From Escherichia phage LF82-4, in the sequence record PV660448: 64,000 nucleotides of DNA, one strand, 5' to 3'. The position numbers and the translations under genes are program-made. Shown one piece after another: positions 1 through 52,649 of the stretch. Below the pieces are notes generated by a model that saw nothing but the letters and a program-made list of their open reading frames with translations, ran no database searches and was not told the DNA's origin. Position 1 is the first letter of the stretch; every line of letters starts with the position of its first letter.

Positions 1-2317
<2,317 letters not shown>

Positions 2318-21995: not shown

Positions 21996-22476
21996 TAAAA
22001 AGGTAATGATTCCCAAATTAGGGCTCAAACATTATAATCTTTTAAAGGACGTTAAAGGCCCTGATGAAAACATGAAAATCTTAGCTGATTCTATTTGTAA
22101 AAATATGAGTCCCGCAGATTTTGATTTTGCATGTCTACACATATTGGAATTTAATAACAAACTTAAGTCTGAAGTTGAAAAAGACGGATTCACATATAAG
22201 CTAGATGACGTCTATGTATGCCAACGAACAGAATTCCAATTCCAAGGCAATACTTTTTATTTTAGACCTCCAGGCAAATTTGAACAATTCGCTACAATCA
22301 GTGAAATGTTATCAAATTGCTTAATAAAAGTTAATGACGAAGAGAAAGAAATTTCTTTCCTTGAGATGCCTGCTTTTGTAATCAAATGGGCAGAAGACCT
22401 TTCGACAACTATTGCTATTCCAGGCCCTAATGGCCCTATTAAGGGTATAGCAGAAATTATTGGATTGCTTGAATGA
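21943..22476 (+). CDS. 28: Baseplate hub distal subunit gp28
   Basis: 177 aa (T4 gp28 length); overlaps gene 27 end in another frame. Confidence 0.88.
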
Positions 22477-32541: not shown

Positions 32542-33156
32542 CTACTTAATGAAATTAATTTCTACCGGATGAACAACAGGTTGAGCAGTGATATATTGAG
32601 TAATTGCTTTCATGACTAGAGCTTCAGAGCCAGGATTTTTCTCAACGAATTCACGTGCTTGGTTATGAGCTTCAAGTTCACTTAGTAAACCACTTCGTTG
32701 ACATCCACGGTCTTGAGTACCCTGTTCAGATAAAAAGGCGACGATGTATTTTTCATCGTCATAAGGTTTAGGCAGTTGAGCAAACGTTCCTTTACTTCCG
32801 AAAGGAGAGTTATGACGCCACATATCGCCGTGAGGAGTTTCAACCTTCGTATATTCGTGCGGGCCATTTTTCTTAATTTCTTGATGTGGAACTTCATGGA
32901 CCTTAGGGTTAGGACATTCAATAAAATGCTCGTCTAAATCGGTCGAGAATATTAAAGTAAAACAATTACTGAATTTACCAACACCTGCCTGATAAATTTT
33001 ACCTTCAGAAGTTCTAATTTCACAAACTGAGCCGGCATCAGTAACTTCTAAAACTTCAAAAGGCTCGATAAGGTCATATGAGAACATGTTTTTAAGGCGT
33101 GGAGTAATATCCCCATTTTTAAAATTCATTTTATAAAAAGTATTAACTTTAAACAT
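32542..33156 (-). CDS. Hypothetical protein (204 aa)
   Basis: ATG with SD GAGGA; UUCG hairpin just upstream. Confidence 0.6.
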   Translation of the reverse strand: MFKVNTFYKMNFKNGDITPRLKNMFSYDLIEPFEVLEVTDAGSVCEIRTSEGKIYQAGVGKFSNCFTLIFSTDLDEHFIECPNPKVHEVPHQEIKKNGPHEYTKVETPHGDMWRHNSPFGSKGTFAQLPKPYDDEKYIVAFLSEQGTQDRGCQRSGLLSELEAHNQAREFVEKNPGSEALVMKAITQYITAQPVVHPVEINFIK

Positions 33157-33191: not shown

Positions 33192-33557
33192 TTAGATATC
33201 GAATTCATTAAGAACTACATCAAAGATTGCTTCCAGGTGTTCAGGTTTAGCTCGGTTGCTCAGGATGTGACGAATCCAAGTTTTAACCAGAAGCTTACGA
33301 TTAACACCGTTCCAGCAAGGATGAGTACCTAAATCACGCTGACGGAAATCGTCATCTAATGCAATTTTGAAGTTGGAACCTTCCATCGTGATTGAAACCG
33401 TGATGCCATTTTCAAATCGCATATAAACGTAATTAGGAGTCATGCACTGTTCGATTTCACATACTGAACCATTTTTATGTTTCCATAAGCAAATAACTTC
33501 AGAAGAACCAGCGATACCGTTAGAAACATATTTACGTTCGAAGTTGATGTAGTTCAT
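33192..33557 (-). CDS. Hypothetical protein (~121 aa)
   Basis: Internal ATG (MNYINFERK...) with SD GGAG; upstream promoter-embedded hairpin. Confidence 0.6.
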   Translation of the reverse strand: MNYINFERKYVSNGIAGSSEVICLWKHKNGSVCEIEQCMTPNYVYMRFENGITVSITMEGSNFKIALDDDFRQRDLGTHPCWNGVNRKLLVKTWIRHILSNRAKPEHLEAIFDVVLNEFDI

Positions 33558-33585
33558 TTTATTCTCCAGATGTTTAAGTTGTTTG

Positions 33586-33627
33586 TTGGTACAGGTATAT
33601 AATAACATAACCTGTACCAAAGTAAAC
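33586..33627 (-). promoter_or_regulatory. Early-promoter-like element with -10 inside a stem-loop (PeSL-like)
   Basis: GTTTAC at 33622-33627; 10-bp inverted repeat TTGGTACAGG/CCTGTACCAA (33586-33620) enclosing TATATAAT. Confidence 0.5.
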
Positions 33628-33631
33628 TGTT

Positions 33632-34000
33632 TTATGCAACTTTAATCCAATTGTCTAAATTTAAAACACCTTTGGCTTTCATTTTTTCGATCAGGTTATC
33701 TGCTGTAATGCGTCCATTTTGATACCATGTAACATCTTCAGAGTAACCAGTTTCTTCGTCAACATATGTTTCTGAACGAATTTTACCTGTAATAATAGTT
33801 TTTAATTCGTATGTGTCACCTGTGAAAAAGTTTGCTAACACAATTTTCCAAGAGAAATCATCAGAAGGACCTTCAGGGGTCATACAACCTACGAACTCAA
33901 ATTGCTCTTTGTATAACATCCACTGGAATTCTTTAATTTCGATAGCTTTATAACCGTCGTGGTCTTTACATTTGATGTATGAGTTCAGATTGATTTTCAT
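33632..34000 (-). CDS. Hypothetical protein (122 aa)
   Basis: ATG with SD GGAGAA; early-promoter-like element upstream. Confidence 0.6.
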   Translation of the reverse strand: MKINLNSYIKCKDHDGYKAIEIKEFQWMLYKEQFEFVGCMTPEGPSDDFSWKIVLANFFTGDTYELKTIITGKIRSETYVDEETGYSEDVTWYQNGRITADNLIEKMKAKGVLNLDNWIKVA

Positions 34001-34037
34001 TTTGTTCTCCGGTTTGTTTTATTGATTAGGTGGTACA

Positions 34038-34071
34038 AGTCTATAGTAACACATCCTACAGGAGAGTAAAC
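34038..34071 (-). promoter_or_regulatory. T4 early-promoter-like element
   Basis: GTTTAC...TGTTACTATAG cassette upstream of ORF 33632-34000. Confidence 0.5.
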
Positions 34072-34108
34072 ACTTTTTTTAAACTTTTTCTGCCCTAAAC
34101 GCACAAAA

Positions 34109-34126
34109 GGGAGACCGAAGTCTCCC
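34109..34126 (-). terminator. Hairpin terminator after the 59-aa basic ORF
   Basis: GGGAGAC-UUCG-GUCUCCC followed by UUUUGU on minus strand. Confidence 0.65.
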
Positions 34127-34131
34127 TAAAA

Positions 34132-35546: not shown

Positions 35547-36117
35547 AAAAGTTTCGGATTTGTTCCCAATTCAGAGAACGAAGATTATTACGAGAGTACT
35601 GAATTACTTCAATACCAGCTTGTTTTAGAATATCTGCCCAATTTTCAGGAGATCGGTCGTATAATTCTGCGTATACAACCTTTTTAATACCTGACTGCGT
35701 AATAGCTTTAGTGCAATCAGGACACGGAGAAAGCGTAGTATATAACGTAGCACCTTCAATAGAATTACCTTTACGAGCGGCAAACAAAATTGCATTCAAT
35801 TCTGCATGGATTTCATTATTAGCAGACCATGCACTATGAGCAGCTCGATGTTCTTTGGCTAAAACAAAATTATCTACCCGTCCAAATGCTGTAGTGCCTT
35901 CTTTATGTCCAGCAACGATGACTGGGATTGGTTTATTCTTCAACCAACCATTTTCAGATGCATGTTCGCAACAGTTAACGCCACCTGCAGGTGAACCGTT
36001 ATATCCAGTAGAGATAATGCGTCCATCTTTTTCAATGACGGCACCAACTTTCCATGAACAACATTTTGATTCTTGAGAAATCAGATATGCAATCTGAAGG
36101 TATGTGCTAGCTTTCAT
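35536..36117 (-). CDS. cd: dCMP deaminase
   Basis: 193 aa (T4 Cd length); zinc-binding HAE...PCxxC (HAELNAILFAARKG, SPCPDCTKAI). Confidence 0.95.
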   Translation of the reverse strand: MKASTYLQIAYLISQESKCCSWKVGAVIEKDGRIISTGYNGSPAGGVNCCEHASENGWLKNKPIPVIVAGHKEGTTAFGRVDNFVLAKEHRAAHSAWSANNEIHAELNAILFAARKGNSIEGATLYTTLSPCPDCTKAITQSGIKKVVYAELYDRSPENWADILKQAGIEVIQYSRNNLRSLNWEQIRNFCGE

Positions 36118-37109
36118 TATTGAACCTTATTAATATAAGTTAACAGCTCTTTAGTTTGTTCCCAACTGATGCACGCATCGGTAACGGAAACGCCATAGGA
36201 CATATTATCAGAAATTTTTTGATTTCCTTCATGTAGGAACGATTCTATCATAATTCCTTTGACCAAATCATTAGCTGCTAAATTTTTACCAATACCAATT
36301 TGATTGCTATAATGCCCATCAGCGTTTGCATGGCTACAGTCAACCATTACATAATGATTCAGACCTACTGCCCTTGCTTTGTTAGAAGCTTCTTGAATAT
36401 CAGAAGAATGATAGTTCGGGCCGTTGGTCCCGCCACGCAATACGATATGCGTATTCTGATTACCTTCAGCTTCAACAATGCCTACAGTACCATCGACGTC
36501 CATACCCATATACCGATGAGGCCAGGCGGCACTATACATCGCGTCTGTAGCTACTTTAATAGAACCATTGGTTGCGTTCTTGAAGCCTACGCACATCGGT
36601 AGACCTGAAGCAATTTCACGATGTGTCTGACTTTCAGTCGTACGGGCGCCAATAGCAACCCATGAGAAAATACCAGAAAGATACTTAATCGTGAATGGGT
36701 CTAATACTTCAGTTGCTAATGGAAGTCCCATACGTAGAAGTTTACGACACAATGTTCGTGCAACTATAAGACCGTGGTTCATATCAAAACTTCCGTCAAG
36801 ATATGGATCATTTACAAGACCTTTCCAACCTACGGTAGTTCGAGGCTTTTCAAAATAAACGCGCATCACTAACAGAACATTAGGAAGACGAGTTTGAAGT
36901 TCAGCCAGACGTTTGCCGTATTCAACCGCGGCAATAGGGTCATGAATTGAACAAGGACCTACAACAATAAGTTTGCGTGGGTCTTCACCGTTCATAATCG
37001 AATTAACTTGTTCGCGATGAGAAGCCACTTGTGATGCGTAAGCTTCCGACAAAGGAATAATCTCAGCCAGTTCTTTTGGAGAAATAAGTTTTCCGACGAC
37101 AGGTAACAT
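36117..37109 (-). CDS. 3-deoxy-D-arabino-heptulosonate-7-phosphate (DAHP) synthase, class I (AroF/AroG-like)
   Basis: 330 aa; motifs GPCSIHDP, VMRVYFEKPRTTVGWKGL, DCSHANADG, IMIESFLHEGNQ, YGVSVTDACISWE; SD AAGGA; stop overlaps cd start (TAATG). Confidence 0.92.
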   Translation of the reverse strand: MLPVVGKLISPKELAEIIPLSEAYASQVASHREQVNSIMNGEDPRKLIVVGPCSIHDPIAAVEYGKRLAELQTRLPNVLLVMRVYFEKPRTTVGWKGLVNDPYLDGSFDMNHGLIVARTLCRKLLRMGLPLATEVLDPFTIKYLSGIFSWVAIGARTTESQTHREIASGLPMCVGFKNATNGSIKVATDAMYSAAWPHRYMGMDVDGTVGIVEAEGNQNTHIVLRGGTNGPNYHSSDIQEASNKARAVGLNHYVMVDCSHANADGHYSNQIGIGKNLAANDLVKGIMIESFLHEGNQKISDNMSYGVSVTDACISWEQTKELLTYINKVQ

Positions 37110-37229: not shown

Positions 37230-37466
37230 TTATAGTGTTCCATATACTCGAGTTGCTTCAACAAGACCATCACTGCCTAATTTAAGATTAGTAATTTGGT
37301 CACCATCTTTAGGATTAACGATTATGAGAAAAGAACGTGGAGATTCTTGAATAACTCGTAATGTTGCATCCTGGAAACGTTCAGACACTTTATTGATGAG
37401 TGCTTGAGCAAATTCTTTTACTTTAATCTGAAATTCGTGTACTGTAATTGGATTTTCACTTAGCAT
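37230..37466 (-). CDS. Hypothetical small protein
   Basis: Internal ATG (MLSENPITV...) with SD GAGGA; early-promoter-like element at 37492-37525. Confidence 0.45.
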   Translation of the reverse strand: MLSENPITVHEFQIKVKEFAQALINKVSERFQDATLRVIQESPRSFLIIVNPKDGDQITNLKLGSDGLVEATRVYGTL

Positions 37467-37491
37467 TTCAATTTCCTCATTTGTTGGTAGA

Positions 37492-37525
37492 GTTATAGTA
37501 TCACAACTCCACCATGTTGTAAACT
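37492..37525 (-). promoter_or_regulatory. T4 early-promoter-like element
   Basis: GTTTAC...GTGATACTATAA cassette upstream of small ORF 37230-37466. Confidence 0.5.
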
Positions 37526-37800
37526 TAAATTGCAAAACATTTAATTTCTTGTGAATCGAAATCAACTTCACACTGAATTACTAGTTCAGCATCAAGACCA
37601 AACACAACAATCACATGAGCCGAGCTGGGCAACAATGTAACAGACACAGAATCCACTTGGTCAGGCACCAGAGTATTCAAAACGTAGAGTAGTTCAGAGT
37701 GGACCTTAAGCTCGGTAGCAGTATCCAGCTTATCAAAGAAATGATTTGCGATAATCTGACTAAAAACGACCTTTACAATTTCAGAATATTTAGGGAACAT
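37525..37800 (-). CDS. Hypothetical protein
   Basis: 91-aa ORF in the cd-pseT interval. Confidence 0.5.
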   Translation of the reverse strand: MFPKYSEIVKVVFSQIIANHFFDKLDTATELKVHSELLYVLNTLVPDQVDSVSVTLLPSSAHVIVVFGLDAELVIQCEVDFDSQEIKCFAI

Positions 37801-37807
37801 AATTACC

Positions 37808-38032
37808 TCAGTGTACAGTATTTACTTTAACTCGAACAACAAATTGCTCGGTCGGTTCGCCTACAGGAACAAACTCTACATGATATTCGCCTTTGTAACG
37901 AGTATTCAGGTCGTTACGAATTTCGGTAAGCTTGTTGATTAATGTAGAACTCATATTAAGTCCTACTAGTTTACGAAGCATTTTGTATGCTTCATCTTCG
38001 ATTTCATGATGTTTATCGTACATAATTTTCAT
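37808..38032 (-). CDS. Hypothetical protein
   Basis: 74-aa ORF in the cd-pseT interval. Confidence 0.5.
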   Translation of the reverse strand: MKIMYDKHHEIEDEAYKMLRKLVGLNMSSTLINKLTEIRNDLNTRYKGEYHVEFVPVGEPTEQFVVRVKVNTVH

Positions 38033-39291: not shown

Positions 39292-39590
39292 TATTTTATT
39301 CCTAAGAAAGTTTCAAGAATACGAATGTTATGCTCGCGCCGGTCTTTATTAATTTCAGCAACGTTTTTATTAATTGACGTACTTCTAACGTTTGAAGAAA
39401 TAAATTTAATCATATGACTTTTGAGTTGTTGCAAATCCAACCCTTTTTCTTTAGCAGCTTTACGAAGAGCTTTACCTGCTTCATCTAGTGCCTTTGCTGC
39501 ATCTTTGTCATAATTGCCAAGTGACATTCCACGACAGATATCAATATACTCATCAGACCGTTTGATGTAATTCTCTAGTAATGTTTTCAT
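39291..39590 (-). CDS. Hypothetical protein
   Basis: 99-aa ORF. Confidence 0.55.
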
Positions 39591-39647
39591 TTAGATTTCC
39601 TCAATTATCCATAGGAGCATTATAATCTGCTCCTGAGAGTTTGTAAA

Positions 39648-39872
39648 CTATTTTACTAAAGATTCAATATACTCGTGAAGAGCTTTAGTCGCTACTGCCC
39701 ACTTATTCTGATATTCATTTTTCAGATTAGCACGAGACTGAACTAACAATCGGTCATTAGTCGGAGGCAAAGATTCTAATCGTTGAATCTGGCGCCCATA
39801 AATCATAGCCGCCATTTCAGATTCATAGATAAGCCCTTTAATGTGTTCATGCTGTTCTTTAGTCATTGGCAT
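39648..39872 (-). CDS. Hypothetical protein
   Basis: 74-aa ORF. Confidence 0.55.
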   Translation of the reverse strand: MPMTKEQHEHIKGLIYESEMAAMIYGRQIQRLESLPPTNDRLLVQSRANLKNEYQNKWAVATKALHEYIESLVK

Positions 39873-41021: not shown

Positions 41022-41055
41022 ACCATAGTAACACCATCCTTGGTGTTTGTAAACC
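41022..41055 (-). promoter_or_regulatory. T4 early-promoter-like element (alc)
   Basis: GTTTAC immediately after rnlA stop, -10 TTACTATGG, SD GAGGAG before alc ATG. Confidence 0.5.
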
Positions 41056-42190: not shown

Positions 42191-42236
42191 TCAGTTAGTT
42201 TTTTTAAATTGTACCACAATCCTTGTGGTATGTAAA

Positions 42237-42647
42237 CTACTTTTTCTTATGTTGGATATTCCAAGGCGGGTTGAACTTTTTGATAAAAAGTGGTTCTTCA
42301 AGGTCCATTGTTGCAATGGTCATTGAACCAAGTTCGTTAGTGACTGAAAGGTCAAAACATTGGCGGGCCCAGAATTCAACCTTTTTGCCTTGCATTAAGG
42401 CATCCAAAATCATAAGTGATTTTCTTGAATCTGAAGTCTGGTCTTTTCGATTTATGGCTGTTCGATAATAGTTAATGCGTTTCTTTAAATTCTTGGTTTT
42501 ACCAATATACACAAGTTCGTCATCTATAGCAATAGCGTATATGACATTTTTCTTATTAGGGGCATCAATGGTTTTAATTGTTGCATCTTCTAATAGCTCC
42601 AATTCTATATATTTAATAAAGGAATATTCGGCGGCAATATCTTTCAT
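42237..42647 (-). CDS. denA: Endonuclease II (GIY-YIG-like)
   Basis: 136 aa (T4 DenA length); VIYAIAIDDELVYIGKT. Confidence 0.9.
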   Translation of the reverse strand: MKDIAAEYSFIKYIELELLEDATIKTIDAPNKKNVIYAIAIDDELVYIGKTKNLKKRINYYRTAINRKDQTSDSRKSLMILDALMQGKKVEFWARQCFDLSVTNELGSMTIATMDLEEPLFIKKFNPPWNIQHKKK

Positions 42648-46813: not shown

Positions 46814-47830
46814 CATTATGTTCAGATAAGGTCGTTAATCTTATCCCGGAATTATATCCAGCTGCATGTCACCATGCAGAGCAGACTATATCTCCAACTT
46901 GTTAAAGCAAGTTGTCTATCGTTTCGAGTCACTTGACCCTACTCCCTAAAGGGATAGTCGTTAGGCATTTATGTAGAACCAATTCCACTTATCAGATTTT
47001 ACACGGTAAGTAACTAATCCTGATGAAATTTCAAAATGTCTAGCCGCATCGGCTGCACATTCAAAAATAATCCCGTCGCATGAAATCTTTTTGATGTTAG
47101 CTGGCTTTTTGCCTTTCATCTTTTCAGATAGTTTAGTTTTAGTTTTTTCTGAATGTTTGTGATTAAAGAACGGGTTATTTTCAGCTGAACGTTTTCGACA
47201 CTTTCCACAAGTGTTGGCTGAAGTTGGTATACGAACACCACATTTACAAAACTTGTGGTTTTCCGGATTCCATCTACCATTTTTACTTCCGTGTTTACCA
47301 TAAATAGCTTTTCGACCATCAGATCCAAGCTTAAGCATCTTAGCTTTAACAGTTTCAGCTCGTTTCTTAGCAATTTCTTCCTTTAATGGATGATTCGAAA
47401 ATGTATCACCAAAGGACGCATCGGCGATATTATATCCATTAATTTTAGAATTTAGCTCGTTAATCCAAAAATTTTCTCGTTCAATAATCAAATCTTTCTC
47501 ATATGGAATTTCTTCCAATATAGAGCATTCAAAAACATTACCGTGTTTATTAAAAGATCTTTGAAATTTTATAGAAGAGTGAACACCATTTTCAAGGTCT
47601 TTAAAATGTCTCTTCCATCTTTTCTCAAAATCTTTAGCACTTCCAACATACACTTTACCATTTAAAGTGTTTTTAATCTGATAAATTCCACTTTTCATAA
47701 ACACCTCTTTAAAATATAGAAGTATTTATTAAAGGGTGGTCCTACAATTTAGCACGGGATTGTCTACTAGAGAGGTTCCCCGTTTAGATAGATTACAAGT
47801 ATAAGTCACCTTATACCCAGGCCTAAATTA
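46814..47830 (-). mobile_element. Group I self-splicing intron in td (~1017 nt) carrying I-TevI
   Basis: Intron 5' end reads UAAUUUAGGCCUGGGUAUAAGGUGACUUAUACUUGUAAUCUAUCUAAACGGGGAACCUCUCUAGUAGACA (td-intron-like); exon reading frame resumes after AUG at 46814. Confidence 0.9.
46961..47698 (-). CDS. I-TevI: I-TevI GIY-YIG homing endonuclease (intron-encoded)
   Basis: 245 aa from the ATG with SD AGAGGTG; MKSGIYQIKNTLNGKVYVGS... GIY-YIG domain, zinc finger CKCGVRIPTSANTCGKC. Confidence 0.93.
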   Translation of the reverse strand: MKSGIYQIKNTLNGKVYVGSAKDFEKRWKRHFKDLENGVHSSIKFQRSFNKHGNVFECSILEEIPYEKDLIIERENFWINELNSKINGYNIADASFGDTFSNHPLKEEIAKKRAETVKAKMLKLGSDGRKAIYGKHGSKNGRWNPENHKFCKCGVRIPTSANTCGKCRKRSAENNPFFNHKHSEKTKTKLSEKMKGKKPANIKKISCDGIIFECAADAARHFEISSGLVTYRVKSDKWNWFYINA

Positions 47831-49201
<1,371 letters not shown>

Positions 49202-49203
49202 TT

Positions 49204-49395
49204 TTATTTCCTCAGATATTTTTTGACCATATAGTATTGGAATTCAAACATTCTTGAATCAATAACAAAAATTTGTTTTCTTGGGCATTCATTTAATCGT
49301 ACAGCTGAACACCCAAACGCAAGTTCATGATATTGTTTCTTTTCTATTTCTGAAAGGAAAGTTCTAAGATAACGGAAAAATAGACAGTTAATCAT
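49204..49395 (-). CDS. Hypothetical protein (frd-32 interval)
   Basis: 63-aa ORF. Confidence 0.5.
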   Translation of the reverse strand: MINCLFFRYLRTFLSEIEKKQYHELAFGCSAVRLNECPRKQIFVIDSRMFEFQYYMVKKYLRK

Positions 49396-49397
49396 AA

Positions 49398-49646
49398 TTA
49401 TTTCCTCAGATTTTTCTTAACAACTTTCCAATCGGCTTTAAACGATTCAACATCAGAATGGTGAATCCAGAATCCTGCGCTTTCACCATCTTCGTAGAGT
49501 GGACATCCATCACATTCTTCATTCCAACCCATTTCACGTAAAGATGTTTCAGCTTGTTCAAGGAGTTCAGCATCTTTATCAAGGATGTTGAAGTACCATT
49601 TGCCTTTAACTTCAGAGTCGTTAATGCTTTGGCGTTGTAATTTCAT
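49398..49646 (-). CDS. Hypothetical protein (frd-32 interval)
   Basis: 82-aa ORF with SD GGAGAA; promoter-embedded hairpin upstream. Confidence 0.55.
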   Translation of the reverse strand: MKLQRQSINDSEVKGKWYFNILDKDAELLEQAETSLREMGWNEECDGCPLYEDGESAGFWIHHSDVESFKADWKVVKKNLRK

Positions 49647-49675
49647 TTTATTCTCCGTTGCTTCATTTGTTTTGA

Positions 49676-49712
49676 CAGGGTAATAGTATCACACCATTAC
49701 CCTGTTGTATAC
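49676..49712 (-). promoter_or_regulatory. Early-promoter-like element with -10 inside a stem-loop (PeSL-like)
   Basis: 9-bp inverted repeat CAGGGTAAT/ATTACCCTG (49676-49704) enclosing AGTATCACACC; -35-like GTATAC adjacent. Confidence 0.45.
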
Positions 49713-50074
49713 TATTTTATTCCAAAAATTTCTTTAATTTCTGCAATCACATCTCGAGCATTTTCTGTAGTCACTTCAAAGATGAGTGATTGTTTAGAAA
49801 TAGACTCTGGAGATACCTCGATGAAGTGTTTAAACTCATCATCATAAAGCTCAAAATATGAACCTGGCTTACCATCAAAACCGAATTCAGTACCGTCTCG
49901 CATAGTTACACGGGTTACACATTTATCATCATCATAATCTGTGTTCATGTCTTTTACAACAAAACTAGGACCATGAAGCTCAATCAAAGCCAGCATATCG
50001 GCGTTTTGTGGGCATTCATTGGCGAAGATAGCTTTACATTCTGGATTGATGATATAAGTTTTTCCAATTTTCAT
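49712..50074 (-). CDS. Hypothetical protein, paralog A of a tandem pair
   Basis: 120 aa; N-terminal ~90 aa clearly similar to the adjacent 128-aa ORF (IINP...FANEC...HGPSFVV...RVTM.DGTE). Confidence 0.6.
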   Translation of the reverse strand: MKIGKTYIINPECKAIFANECPQNADMLALIELHGPSFVVKDMNTDYDDDKCVTRVTMRDGTEFGFDGKPGSYFELYDDEFKHFIEVSPESISKQSLIFEVTTENARDVIAEIKEIFGIK

Positions 50075-50135
50075 TTTGATTTCCTCTCATTTGTTTTGAT
50101 AGGACTACTATAACATAGCCCTATCTGATTGTACA

Positions 50136-50522
50136 CTACTTTTTAAAAGTTTTTTGCAAAAGTTTGATGATTTCGTCGACGTTGGTTTCATCTACGATAC
50201 AATGGATTTTTGTTACACCTAAAGTTATACCTTCGTTAGTAGATTGAGGCTTTTCTAAAGTTACCTCAGTAAAGTATTTGAATTCTTCAGAGTAAATCTC
50301 AAAATACGTCTCAAGTGGGCCACCAGCCATGTATTCAGTGCCGTCTTCCATAGTTACACGTACCACACAGTCACCAGCACAATCATCACTTTCCATTTCA
50401 TCTACAACAAAACTAGGTCCGTGCTTCTCTATTAAATTTAGCATCATTACATTGCAACGGCACTCGTTAGCAAAGTCATCTTTAAATAAAGGGTTAATGA
50501 TATAAGATTTTCCGATTTCCAT
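50136..50522 (-). CDS. Hypothetical protein, paralog B of a tandem pair
   Basis: 128 aa; SD GAGGA; own early-promoter-like element upstream. Confidence 0.6.
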   Translation of the reverse strand: MEIGKSYIINPLFKDDFANECRCNVMMLNLIEKHGPSFVVDEMESDDCAGDCVVRVTMEDGTEYMAGGPLETYFEIYSEEFKYFTEVTLEKPQSTNEGITLGVTKIHCIVDETNVDEIIKLLQKTFKK

Positions 50523-50547
50523 TTTGATTTCCTCATGTTGTTGATAG

Positions 50548-50581
50548 GTTTATACTAACACATTCAGGGAAGAAGTAAACA
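50548..50581 (-). promoter_or_regulatory. T4 early-promoter-like element
   Basis: GTTTAC...TGTTAGTATAAA cassette then SD GAGGA upstream of the 128-aa ORF. Confidence 0.5.
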
Positions 50582-50611
50582 ACTTTTTCAGCAATTTACA
50601 GATACTCAAAA

Positions 50612-50629
50612 GGGAGACCGAAGTCTCCC
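50612..50629 (-). terminator. Terminator downstream of gene 32
   Basis: GGGAGAC-UUCG-GUCUCCC followed by UUUUGAG, 6 nt after gene 32 stop. Confidence 0.7.
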
Positions 50630-51660: not shown

Positions 51661-52314
51661 TTAATACTTACATGATTTGATTGTTTCTATGAACAATTTC
51701 TTAGCAGCATTTCCATCGATTTGAAGTATTTTTCGATATGCCTTTAATTTGGTAGAATAATTTTGCCAGACTAAATTGTCAGTAAGTTCGTCATGCTTAT
51801 CTATAATATTCAAGAATGAATCCAACAACAAGAAGGTTTCAAATGAAATTATATTGCTTTGTAGCAATTTAAATATGTAGCTCGACTGAACTTTATTATT
51901 ATAATCAAATATCTCTTGAAGCGCACTAACTTCCACTTTCTTGCTGAAATAGTAGATGTTACGTACATCTTCAGCAAACGTCTCCTTGGCTTGTTTGAGA
52001 CGTCCAATATATTCCCTATAGAAAACTAATGCATCAGCGTCTGATATCTCACCAATCCACGCATCTTGGTTAGCAACTAAGTTACTGATGAATATCAAGG
52101 TGAGTTCCTTTAACTTATATTTCTCTGCTAGTTTCTCAAAGAAATATTTATCTCGGCGTTTTTGATACGCATTATCCGAAACACGCATGCACCAGTTATA
52201 TTTGATTACGTCATACCGACCACCAAAATGGTTTTTGCACATCAAGTATAGTTTGTATACCGATTTTCCATTAATATAACGTTCTCCATCAGGAGGCATA
52301 CGTATTTTAATCAT
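51661..52314 (-). CDS. 59: Helicase loader gp59
   Basis: 217 aa (T4 gp59 length). Confidence 0.93.
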   Translation of the reverse strand: MIKIRMPPDGERYINGKSVYKLYLMCKNHFGGRYDVIKYNWCMRVSDNAYQKRRDKYFFEKLAEKYKLKELTLIFISNLVANQDAWIGEISDADALVFYREYIGRLKQAKETFAEDVRNIYYFSKKVEVSALQEIFDYNNKVQSSYIFKLLQSNIISFETFLLLDSFLNIIDKHDELTDNLVWQNYSTKLKAYRKILQIDGNAAKKLFIETIKSCKY

Positions 52315-52649
52315 AATAAGAAATCTAACGTATTAGTTTTTTCACCACGAGCAACTGATGGGCGAAGCATGTTTTCGTCAATTGCTTCGCTTGTAATTTT
52401 TTCAACAATTCCTGTAGGAATAAATTTAGCAAATTGTGTTTCTGGAATAGAATTTTCTTCCAAGAAAGCAGTTGTTGCTTCTAAATAAGACATACCAAAT
52501 TGTTCAACCATAGATTCGATAATGAATCCGTTTTCTTGACGGTCAAGCAATTTAGCGATATCATCTTTATCGTGTTTTACTGCTAATTCTTGTTCAGATA
52601 AACCGGCCTCATCAACCGGTTTAATATCACTTAGTGAAAACTGTGTCAT
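52311..52649 (-). CDS. 33: Late transcription co-activator gp33
   Basis: 112 aa (T4 gp33 length), order 59-33-dsbA-rnh. Confidence 0.88.
   Translation of the reverse strand: MTQFSLSDIKPVDEAGLSEQELAVKHDKDDIAKLLDRQENGFIIESMVEQFGMSYLEATTAFLEENSIPETQFAKFIPTGIVEKITSEAIDENMLRPSVARGEKTNTLDFLL

Follow-up and report, generated by a model that had tools for sequence, protein, structure and literature searches.

Known promoter and hairpin arrangements in T4-type phages

The closest described counterparts of the elements considered here are the PeSLs, in which a stem-loop and an early promoter share the same short stretch of DNA. In the paper that defined them (Arbiol et al. 2010, PMC2839356), stem-loops overlapping the -10 box are listed among the commonest subclasses, the stem-loop most often lying between the two boxes or across the -10. 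The paper cites earlier IP-locus observations on T-even phages and finds the promoters to be very strong, with about 13,000 Miller units for a wild-type phi1/RB49 PeSL; one phi1/RB49 stem-loop lowered the expression of a downstream lacZ to the same degree as rrnB T1. PeSLs were extended to the T-even pair PST/T4 by Comeau et al. 2014 (PMC4122927).

Hairpins that sequester the ribosome-binding site form a second group of related systems, known from T4 e, soc, 49, I-TevI and segB and from Aeh1 mobE. Here too the promoter lies inside the hairpin DNA, so that long transcripts fold while transcripts from the internal promoter lack the 5' arm. The reviews consulted describe this arrangement for late genes only (PMC3014915, PMC2988022).

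A third point of reference is the T4 early promoter itself, for example Pe133295 between cd.3 and cd.2, with the layout GTTTAC N17 TAnnnT. To our knowledge, the T4 promoter consensus as commonly given contains no complementarity between the spacer and the start site.

Early promoters and hairpin cassettes of the window

The DNA analysed, referred to as the window, is a 64,000-nucleotide stretch of Escherichia phage LF82-4 (PV660448), a Mosigvirus (RB69-like T-even phage). Over 2 kb around the cassette at 33586-33627, the sequence matches Escherichia phages LF82-1 and LF82-9 at 100% identity and other Mosigvirus members at 98-99%. A leftward early region running from alt to rnh has the gene order of T4:

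26710-53821, minus strand: alt, 30, 30.1-30.9, rIII, 31, cd, pseT, alc, rnlA, denA, nrdB/A, td, frd, 32, 59, 33, dsbA, rnh

For genome-wide counts, the whole genome of the 99%-identical relative phiEC1 was assembled. A single-protein search of IMG/VR returned only relatives of 93-98% identity, and other genera were reached by an alignment-based search. An Rfam search of the entire window gave no matches.

Scanning the window for GTTTAC (one mismatch allowed), a spacer of 16-18 nt and TAnnnT yielded about 13 minus-strand sites that are credible as early promoters, and a Shine-Dalgarno (SD) sequence and an ATG follow each of them. In their layout, GTTTAC is separated by 17-18 nt from TAnnnT, and an A/C-rich leader then leads to the SD and the ATG. 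The exact pattern GTTTAC-N17/18-TANNNT occurs 11 times in the window, always on the minus strand, against 2.0 +/- 1.5 in shuffled sequences, and 49 early-type promoters were counted in phiEC1. A generic sigma-70 promoter scan of the window was uninformative (61 sites against 59.8 expected), and the promoters could be picked out only with the T4-specific motif.

Five of these promoters carry a stem of 10-14 bp whose 5' arm lies in the spacer and whose 3' arm lies just past the -10. They are named below by the position of the -35 (33627, 49712, 50136, 37524 and 39648), and are listed with the other promoters and terminators that serve for comparison.

33555-33634, minus strand: cassette 33627, between 30.8 and 30.7; TAA of 30.8 at 33632-33634; -35 GTTTAC at 33622-33627; perfect 11-bp inverted repeat with 5' arm TTGGTACAGGT at 33610-33620 and 3' arm ACCTGTACCAA at 33586-33596; 13-nt loop containing the -10 TATTAT at 33599-33604; predicted +1 near 33592; A/C-rich leader; SD GGAG at 33564-33567; ATG at 33555-33557
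49644-49714, minus strand: cassette 49712, between frd.2b and frd.1; stop TAG at 49712-49714 overlapping the -35 GTATAC at 49707-49712; perfect 10-bp repeat with 5' arm at 49696-49705 and 3' arm at 49675-49684; -10 TACTAT at 49683-49688, partly within the 3' arm; predicted +1 near 49676; SD at 49653-49656; ATG at 49644-49646
50072-50138, minus strand: cassette 50136, between frd.2a and frd.2b; stop TAG overlapping the -35 GTGTAC at 50131-50136; 5' arm at 50115-50125 and 3' arm at 50098-50108, a stem of 9 bp with one G.T, or 11 bp as RNA; -10 TATAGT at 50107-50112; predicted +1 near 50100; SD at 50083-50086; ATG at 50072-50074
37464-37527, minus strand: cassette 37524, between cd.3 and cd.2; -35 GTTTAC at 37519-37524; -10 TACTAT at 37495-37500; 5' arm at 37502-37514 and 3' arm at 37485-37497; SD at 37475-37478; ATG at 37464-37466
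39588-39650, minus strand: cassette 39648, between pseT.1 and the RB69ORF231c-like gene; -35 GTTTAC at 39643-39648; -10 TATAAT at 39619-39624; 5' arm at 39628-39638 and 3' arm at 39608-39619; SD at 39599-39602; ATG at 39588-39590
42208-42237, minus strand: early promoter with a hairpin wholly in the spacer (-8.3 kcal/mol), the PeSL subclass "between the boxes"
41025-41054, minus strand: early promoter between rnlA and alc with a 7-bp hairpin in the spacer (-8.6 kcal/mol)
50522-50629, minus strand: canonical terminator GGGAGAC UUCG GUCUCCC UUUU (50612-50629) after gene 32
50552-50580, minus strand: early promoter behind the gene 32 terminator, with no enclosing hairpin
34000-34127, minus strand: canonical terminator at 34108-34127 after 30.9, followed by the early promoter of 30.8 at 34043-34071

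All three elements noted in the preliminary description (33586-33627, 49676-49712 and 50098-50136) are present on the minus strand, with some differences in detail. The claimed -35 of GTTTAC is perfect at 33627; GTATAC at 49712 departs from it by one mismatch, and 50136 has GTGTAC. Likewise, the -10 sits in the loop at 33627, as had been described, while at 49712 and 50136 it is partly in the stem. The exact CAACAACAUGAGGA leader belongs to the promoters at 50580 and 26710, and the leaders of the three cited sites are CAAAACAAAUGAG.../CAACAAACAAC... variants. Two strong cassettes, 37485-37524 and 39608-39648, had been overlooked. In a search for perfect inverted repeats, those of 33627 and 49712 were among the few long intergenic ones, the remaining intergenic hairpins being short-loop UUCG terminators.

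The five hairpins have loops of 8-13 nt. Against dinucleotide shuffles, the RNA of cassette 33627 folds at -20.0 kcal/mol (z = -5.0), that of 49712 at -19.1 kcal/mol (z = -4.8) and that of 50136 at -16.0 kcal/mol (z = -5.2); the values for 37524 and 39648 are -16.9 kcal/mol (z -4.4) and -12.2 kcal/mol (z -3.2). The 10 nt before the -35 are 70-90% A/T, compared with 62% for the window, and the downstream ORFs encode 78-121 aa.

Comparison with PeSLs and T4 early promoters

The window cassettes belong to the kind of element published as PeSLs between 2010 and 2014, and the core idea is thus already known. The PeSL-like identity proposed in the preliminary description stands, as every sequence-level PeSL feature is found: a T4-type early promoter (GTTTAC/GTATAC/GTGTAC, a 17-18 nt spacer and TAnnnT), an overlapping stem-loop of -12 to -20 kcal/mol (z -3.2 to -5.2), an upstream stop codon and an A/T-rich flank at the -35, the SD and ATG of a small downstream ORF, and repeated occurrence, as judged from the 49 early-type promoters of phiEC1 and from dispersed copies with 20-29 nt matches. 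The order of parts in the published PeSLs is the same, from the stop, A/T-rich stretch and -35 through spacer, -10 and stem-loop to the SD and ATG of a small ORF, and both kinds of cassette are repeated across early or hyperplastic regions next to indels and swaps. There are also differences. The PeSLs of RB49/phi1 combine TTGACA/TATAAT with G-run/C-run stems, whereas the window has a GTTTAC -35 and mixed-sequence stems that vary by cassette. In the PST/T4 comparison (PMC4122927) the stem-loop is drawn just upstream of the promoter, whereas the window stems surround the -10.

The match to T4 early promoters such as Pe133295 extends to the -35, the spacing, the -10, the A-rich flank and the A/C-rich leader, and three window cassettes have direct T4 orthologs whose stems are the same or nearly so. 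The 30.8/30.7 site is already marked in the public annotation of the close relative SA79RD as an overlapping terminator and T4 early promoter. What the present analysis adds is modest: evidence that folding takes place in coding-strand RNA, the occurrence of the hairpin where a promoter abuts the upstream stop codon, and the pairing of the spacer with the SD in related promoters. No report of the strand bias or of the link to abutting stop codons was found in the available portions of Arbiol 2010 and Comeau 2014 (PMC2839356, PMC4122927).

The stems exceed chance and are conserved

Since shuffling destroys the promoter consensus, chimeras were used in place of shuffles as controls, the spacer and -10 of one promoter being joined to the segment past the -10 of another and the sequence from the -35 to about +15 being folded. 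Five of the 14 native window promoters fold at <= -12 kcal/mol, compared with 3 of 182 chimeras (Fisher p = 4e-5), and at <= -15 kcal/mol the counts are 4/14 and 0/182. Genome-wide in phiEC1, 14 of the 49 early-type promoters fold at <= -12, against 3.0% of 2352 chimeras, and enclosing hairpins were recognised at 14-17 of the 49. The stems in the five cassettes are thus far beyond chance.

Conservation of the inverted repeats in relatives, on which the preliminary description had made its proposal depend, was found in T4 and extends to distant genera, where the stem sequences are unrelated; compensatory changes are also seen. Orthologous cassettes lie in T4 at 129918 (30.8/30.7), 133331 (cd.3/cd.2) and 146143 (after frd.2). 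The stem at T4 129918 is the same as that of window 33627 (GGTACAGG/CCTGTACC). At T4 133331, where the T4 RefSeq record names the early promoter Pe133295, the stem differs from that of window 37524 by two one-sided changes, both of which give wobble pairs on the coding strand. The cassette at T4 146143 is homologous to both frd.2 cassettes of the window.

The region upstream of gene 30.7 was sampled more widely, in 35 IMG/VR loci and six GenBank phages from other genera. With two exceptions, GTTTAC is present and a strong stem opens with its 5' arm 1-4 nt later; one exception is a degenerate stem (Shark_ER15 and L052), and in the other (S13 and L057) the stem encloses the -10 of a promoter that has TTGCGC in place of GTTTAC. 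The stems themselves are unrelated between lineages (TTGGTACAGG, GCTGATTGAGTGT, TTGGTGTAGGAGTA, CGGTGAGGGTCT, TTGGGTGGT..., CAAGGGCATCTT), with at least six unrelated stem sequences among the 28 distinct orthologous sequences in which the scan located a GTTTAC-type promoter. Column-by-column covariation across genera is ruled out at this site by shifts of the helix register between lineages, and for this reason cross-lineage chimeras were used there. The mean fold of the 28 sequences is -19.3 kcal/mol, compared with -8.7 for the chimeras, and 89% of the native sequences but 6% of the chimeras reach <= -15 kcal/mol.

Formal pair counts were made within one paralogous family only, that of window 39648, phiEC1 82103 and phiEC1 52060, whose flanks are nearly identical. 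Compensatory double changes occur at 3 of its 7 stem pairs, and at none in slid-partner controls. The variants of cassette 50136 in APCEc01 and Mizar change their pairs via wobbles. This cassette is a member of a dispersed family, TAGGACT...AGTCCTA, found at eight or more phiEC1 loci (...TAGGACTATGTTATAGTAGTCCTATCAAA...) with 20-29 nt of exact identity between copies:

phiEC1 positions of the 50136-type family: 156537, 85794, 79289, 77997, 67189, 28350, 7356 and 6844

Taken with the chimera controls, these observations establish the hairpin around early promoters as a real, selected feature.

Strand bias and position of the hairpins

A transition in a stem leaves either a G.T pair, which is tolerated in the RNA of that strand, or an A.C pair, which is not. 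The coding-strand helices of 16 enclosing hairpins of phiEC1 contain 27 G.U pairs and a single A.C mismatch, and stability favours the sense RNA over the antisense in 15 of the 16 (mean -3.9 kcal/mol, p = 0.0006), while the 29 phiEC1 promoters without hairpins have no strand bias. The same preference is seen among relatives and in the window cassettes, for example at 50136 (antisense -8.9 kcal/mol) and at 37524 (antisense -8.1 kcal/mol, z -0.6). The excess of G.U on the coding strand and the scarcity of A.C mean that RNA is what folds, and they speak for selection on the RNA structure of the coding strand rather than for a cruciform or a site bound as duplex DNA.

Which RNA carries the hairpin depends on the start site. 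With the usual spacing of about 7 nt past the -10, the predicted +1 falls within the 3' arm in all five window cassettes, and therefore only read-through RNA from the upstream gene should be able to form the hairpin; the promoter's own transcript, given this predicted start, would lack the 5' arm and most of the 3' arm. A literature search found no T4 start-site maps covering these promoters, and the window cassettes are taken to be active promoters by their homology to those of T4.

The hairpins are also tied to the end of the preceding gene. Each of the five window cassettes has the upstream stop codon either overlapping its -35 or at most 4 nt from it. Window promoters at divergent junctions (53884 and 11367) or behind a terminator (50580 and 34071, the latter being the promoter of gene 30.8) have no enclosing stem; at 50580 the spacer UUCUUCC can pair weakly with the SD GAGGAA. 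In phiEC1, a promoter was counted as abutting if the first base of its -35 is no more than 12 nt from the stop codon of an upstream ORF in the same orientation. By this measure, enclosing hairpins occur at 15 of 27 abutting promoters and at 2 of 22 others (p = 0.0008). None of the four phiEC1 promoters behind a separate UUCG terminator has one, and five of the 27 abutting promoters have no hairpin of any kind.

This complementary distribution invites comparison with the UUCG terminators of the same phage, which likewise mark the 3' end of a co-oriented gene. The enclosing hairpins differ from them in having no U-run, loops of 8-13 nt in place of a tetraloop, and a lower stem G+C. None of the five cassettes has a U-run after the hairpin, the tails being A/C-rich, and identity with a canonical intrinsic terminator was rejected on that ground. 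A generic intrinsic-terminator scan left all five unflagged, although it found the canonical UUCG terminators. Efficient intrinsic termination at the five hairpins is doubtful because of the missing U-run, the loops of 8-13 nt and the negative scan. The published terminator test, moreover, was made with a G/C-rich RB49 stem.

Pairing of the spacer with the Shine-Dalgarno sequence in relatives

At some early promoters the spacer pairs with the SD over 9-14 bp, including sites upstream of gene 30.7 (L038-L055). In CGG4-1- and PG7-like phages the spacer CUCCGUUGUAU at the 30.7 site pairs with the SD AUACAACGGAG, and one locus (L053) differs from its relatives by three compensatory changes in this pairing. 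Duplexes of 13-14 bp between spacer and SD occur at four of the 49 phiEC1 early promoters, against 0.19 expected, and two T4 promoters, those of 30.8 and alc, resemble this design:

phiEC1 (L062/L063): spacer-SD promoters at 74971, 71304, 29662 and 16601
T4 (L017): promoters with spacer-SD-like pairing at 130310 and 136336

Judging from these pairings, a read-through RNA would be untranslatable. They also show a general pattern in which the promoter spacer is used to house the 5' arm. Between genera, the -10-enclosing and the spacer-SD forms replace each other at gene 30.7.

The likeness to the ribosome-binding-site hairpins described above is twofold, in the promoter lying inside the hairpin DNA and in the predicted division between long transcripts that fold and internal-promoter transcripts that lack the 5' arm. 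The known cases, however, have late or middle promoters and a paired SD/AUG, whereas the window cassettes have early promoters and a free SD. Pairing of the 3' arm with the SD or start codon is seen in none of the five window cassettes; among relatives it occurs at the orthologous 30.7 site and at the four phiEC1 promoters.

Proposed function and alternative explanations

The reading that we consider probable is that these are PeSL-type composite cassettes in which the hairpin is the 3' structure of the upstream message, packed into the next promoter. Each cassette contains a T4-type early promoter, which would be read by the host sigma-70 RNA polymerase. In such a promoter, two segments are free to vary, namely the spacer just past the -35 and a few start-site bases just past the -10, and in the hairpin cassettes these segments are complementary to each other. 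As a structure at the 3' end of the upstream message, the hairpin may attenuate or terminate read-through, block 3' exonucleases, or both. It would be squeezed into the promoter, since the promoter starts 0-12 nt past the upstream stop. In an intergenic space of 60-75 nt that also has to accommodate a promoter and a leader, no positions other than the spacer and the start-site segment are free, which would explain why the hairpin encloses the -10. Each small early gene could then be a self-contained module of promoter, gene and end-hairpin. The action of RegB and RNase E on T4 early mRNAs suggests that protection of the upstream message from 3' exonucleases may come into play after cleavage in the leader or SD.

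The hairpin could instead select transcripts for translation, by hindering ribosome loading or re-initiation on read-through RNA. Expression of the downstream gene would then depend entirely on its own early promoter and be confined to the first minutes of infection. The spacer-SD pairing at the 30.7 site of CGG4-1 and PG7, its compensated variant in L053, the excess of 13-14 bp duplexes in phiEC1 (4/49 against 0.19) and the similar look of the T4 promoters of 30.8 and alc all speak for this, and the same logic is proven for the late genes e, soc, 49 and I-TevI (PMC3014915, PMC2988022). In all five window cassettes, however, SD and ATG are unpaired, and the stem ends 18-35 nt upstream of the ATG at a variable distance, so that for these cassettes we think the explanation unlikely.

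Two further explanations do without a role for RNA. In one, the inverted repeat acts as DNA: it might form a cruciform, be a palindrome bound by a protein, or be a recombination site, and in this way tune the promoter or target exchange. Perfect or near-perfect palindromes within promoters, breakpoints located in cassettes, and the speculation by Arbiol et al. on a DNA-binding protein recognising PeSL stems (PMC2839356) would agree with such a role. Yet the stems share no recognition sequence, being unrelated between cassettes and genera, and the strand asymmetry (27 G.U against 1 A.C, sense favoured in 15/16) is unexpected where both strands pair; a cruciform or operator was rejected on these two grounds, and we regard any DNA-level role of the repeat as very improbable. 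In the other, the hairpins are functionless by-products of the promoter consensus or of chance complementarity in A/T-rich intergenic DNA. It is true that a motif recurring at the start sites of these promoters (AGTCCTATC / AGACCTATC) makes up part of the 3' arm and that one stem family recurs at eight or more loci. But chimeras that retain the consensus fold far worse, which led to rejection of this explanation, and the compensatory changes, the upkeep of stems of unrelated sequence at one orthologous site across genera, and the association with promoters abutting an upstream stop codon also stand against it; its probability is close to nil.

The 3'-structure reading and the spacer-SD variants might be joined in a broader proposal, which we put forward tentatively and rate below even chances: hairpins straddling the start site would be a genome-wide T-even device, present at about half of the early promoters in two interconvertible forms that separate read-through from local RNA. 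The -10-enclosing form may mark or insulate the upstream message, while the spacer-SD form may limit translation to the gene's own immediate-early promoter. If this is true, the spacer-SD form extends to early genes a control that reviews describe for late genes only.

Cassettes, gene shuffling and differences from T4

The preliminary description had held that the cassettes flank exactly those ORFs that differ from T4. This is overstated: it holds for frd.2, 30.8 and RB69ORF231c/230c, but not for DAHP synthase or for four non-T4 ORFs that have no cassette:

49204-49395: non-T4 ORF without a cassette
48956-49201: non-T4 ORF without a cassette
37808-38032: non-T4 ORF without a cassette
32542-33156: non-T4 ORF without a cassette

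The paralog pair is flanked as claimed, with a cassette on either side of each frd.2 paralog (50136-50522 and 49712-50074). Among relatives, APCEc01 and JS09 have one frd.2 copy, ESh15 has the two types in reverse order, and the alignment breakpoints fall within cassettes and leaders. The claim for the 30.x ORFs was upheld at gene 30.8, which has 37% identity to T4 and lies between 30.9 (96%) and 30.7 (94%); nucleotide identity to T4 resumes after 30.8 exactly at the GTTTAC of cassette 33627. Cassette 39648 and the next two ORFs (RB69ORF231c and 230c) are missing from T4. Cassettes 33627 and 37524 themselves are present in T4, with stems that are the same or nearly so. The DAHP-synthase neighbourhood did not hold up: together with a small ORF, the DAHP synthase gene replaces T4 cd.1, and it lies one gene downstream of the cd.3/cd.2 cassette, which T4 also has, so that it was rejected as a cassette-flanked gene.

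When ESh15, JS09 and phiEC1 were compared over the 27-kb region, only one of five structural differences lay at cassettes. The other four are the td intron with an I-TevI homolog, the 664-nt insertion between 59 and 33, which has the size of a homing endonuclease gene, and two plain indels, a 99-nt insertion after rIII and a 419-nt indel at 48969-49387. The link between cassettes and shuffling therefore holds only in part, at frd.2, 30.8 and RB69ORF231c/230c and not everywhere. From these loci we infer a role of the cassettes in recombination, for which their conserved parts, with 20-29 nt exact matches between dispersed copies, would offer plausible crossover points. The intergenic position of the boundaries may, however, only reflect the survival of recombinants with unbroken genes.

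Meaning of the arrangement

Among the genes of T-even phages are dozens of tiny early ones whose function is unknown, and many of these are host-takeover or anti-defence factors with fast turnover between strains. If each gene is a module of promoter, gene and hairpin, its addition, loss, duplication or reordering spares the neighbours, and its expression is kept independent of upstream transcription. For annotation, such hairpins should not be labelled as plain terminators, and the internal promoters should be marked. For phage engineering, the cassettes resemble natural insulated insertion points.

Other observations on the region

Several features of the early region were noted in passing. 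In the window, td is split by an insertion of about 1 kb (46814-47831) that contains an I-TevI homolog at 46961-47698 with 88% identity to T4. The insertion is missing from LF82-9, ESh15, JS09 and phiEC1, and the Rfam search of the window gave no group I intron match at the gathering score. The 664-nt insertion of phiEC1 between genes 59 and 33 corresponds to window 52300-52315, where the window has no such gene; the T4 homing endonuclease gene segG, between genes 32 and 59, is one junction away from this site. The 419-nt segment at 48969-49387 comprises most of two small ORFs between frd and frd.1; Mizar, ESh15 and phiEC1 lack it. A 33-nt repeat at the ORF junctions (49195-49227) is common to its ends, which have no promoter cassette.

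The DAHP synthase gene (phospho-2-dehydro-3-deoxyheptonate aldolase, 330 aa) that takes the place of T4 cd.1 is at window 36117-37109. Its stop codon overlaps the start of cd, and the gene is common to JS09, ESh15 and SA79RD.

Between the frd.2 cassette and frd.1, the window is without a small ORF that is conserved, and unannotated, in T4 and ESh15. There, a 22-codon ORF with its own SD follows the frd.2 cassette and precedes frd.1, and its product resembles a hydrophobic mini-protein:

T4 (L017), 22003-22148, minus strand: 22-codon ORF, MFAPYIMAAVMLVCLYLLIKAC
ESh15 (L061), 713-860, minus strand: 22-codon ORF, MLAPYIMAVVMLVCLYLLIKAC
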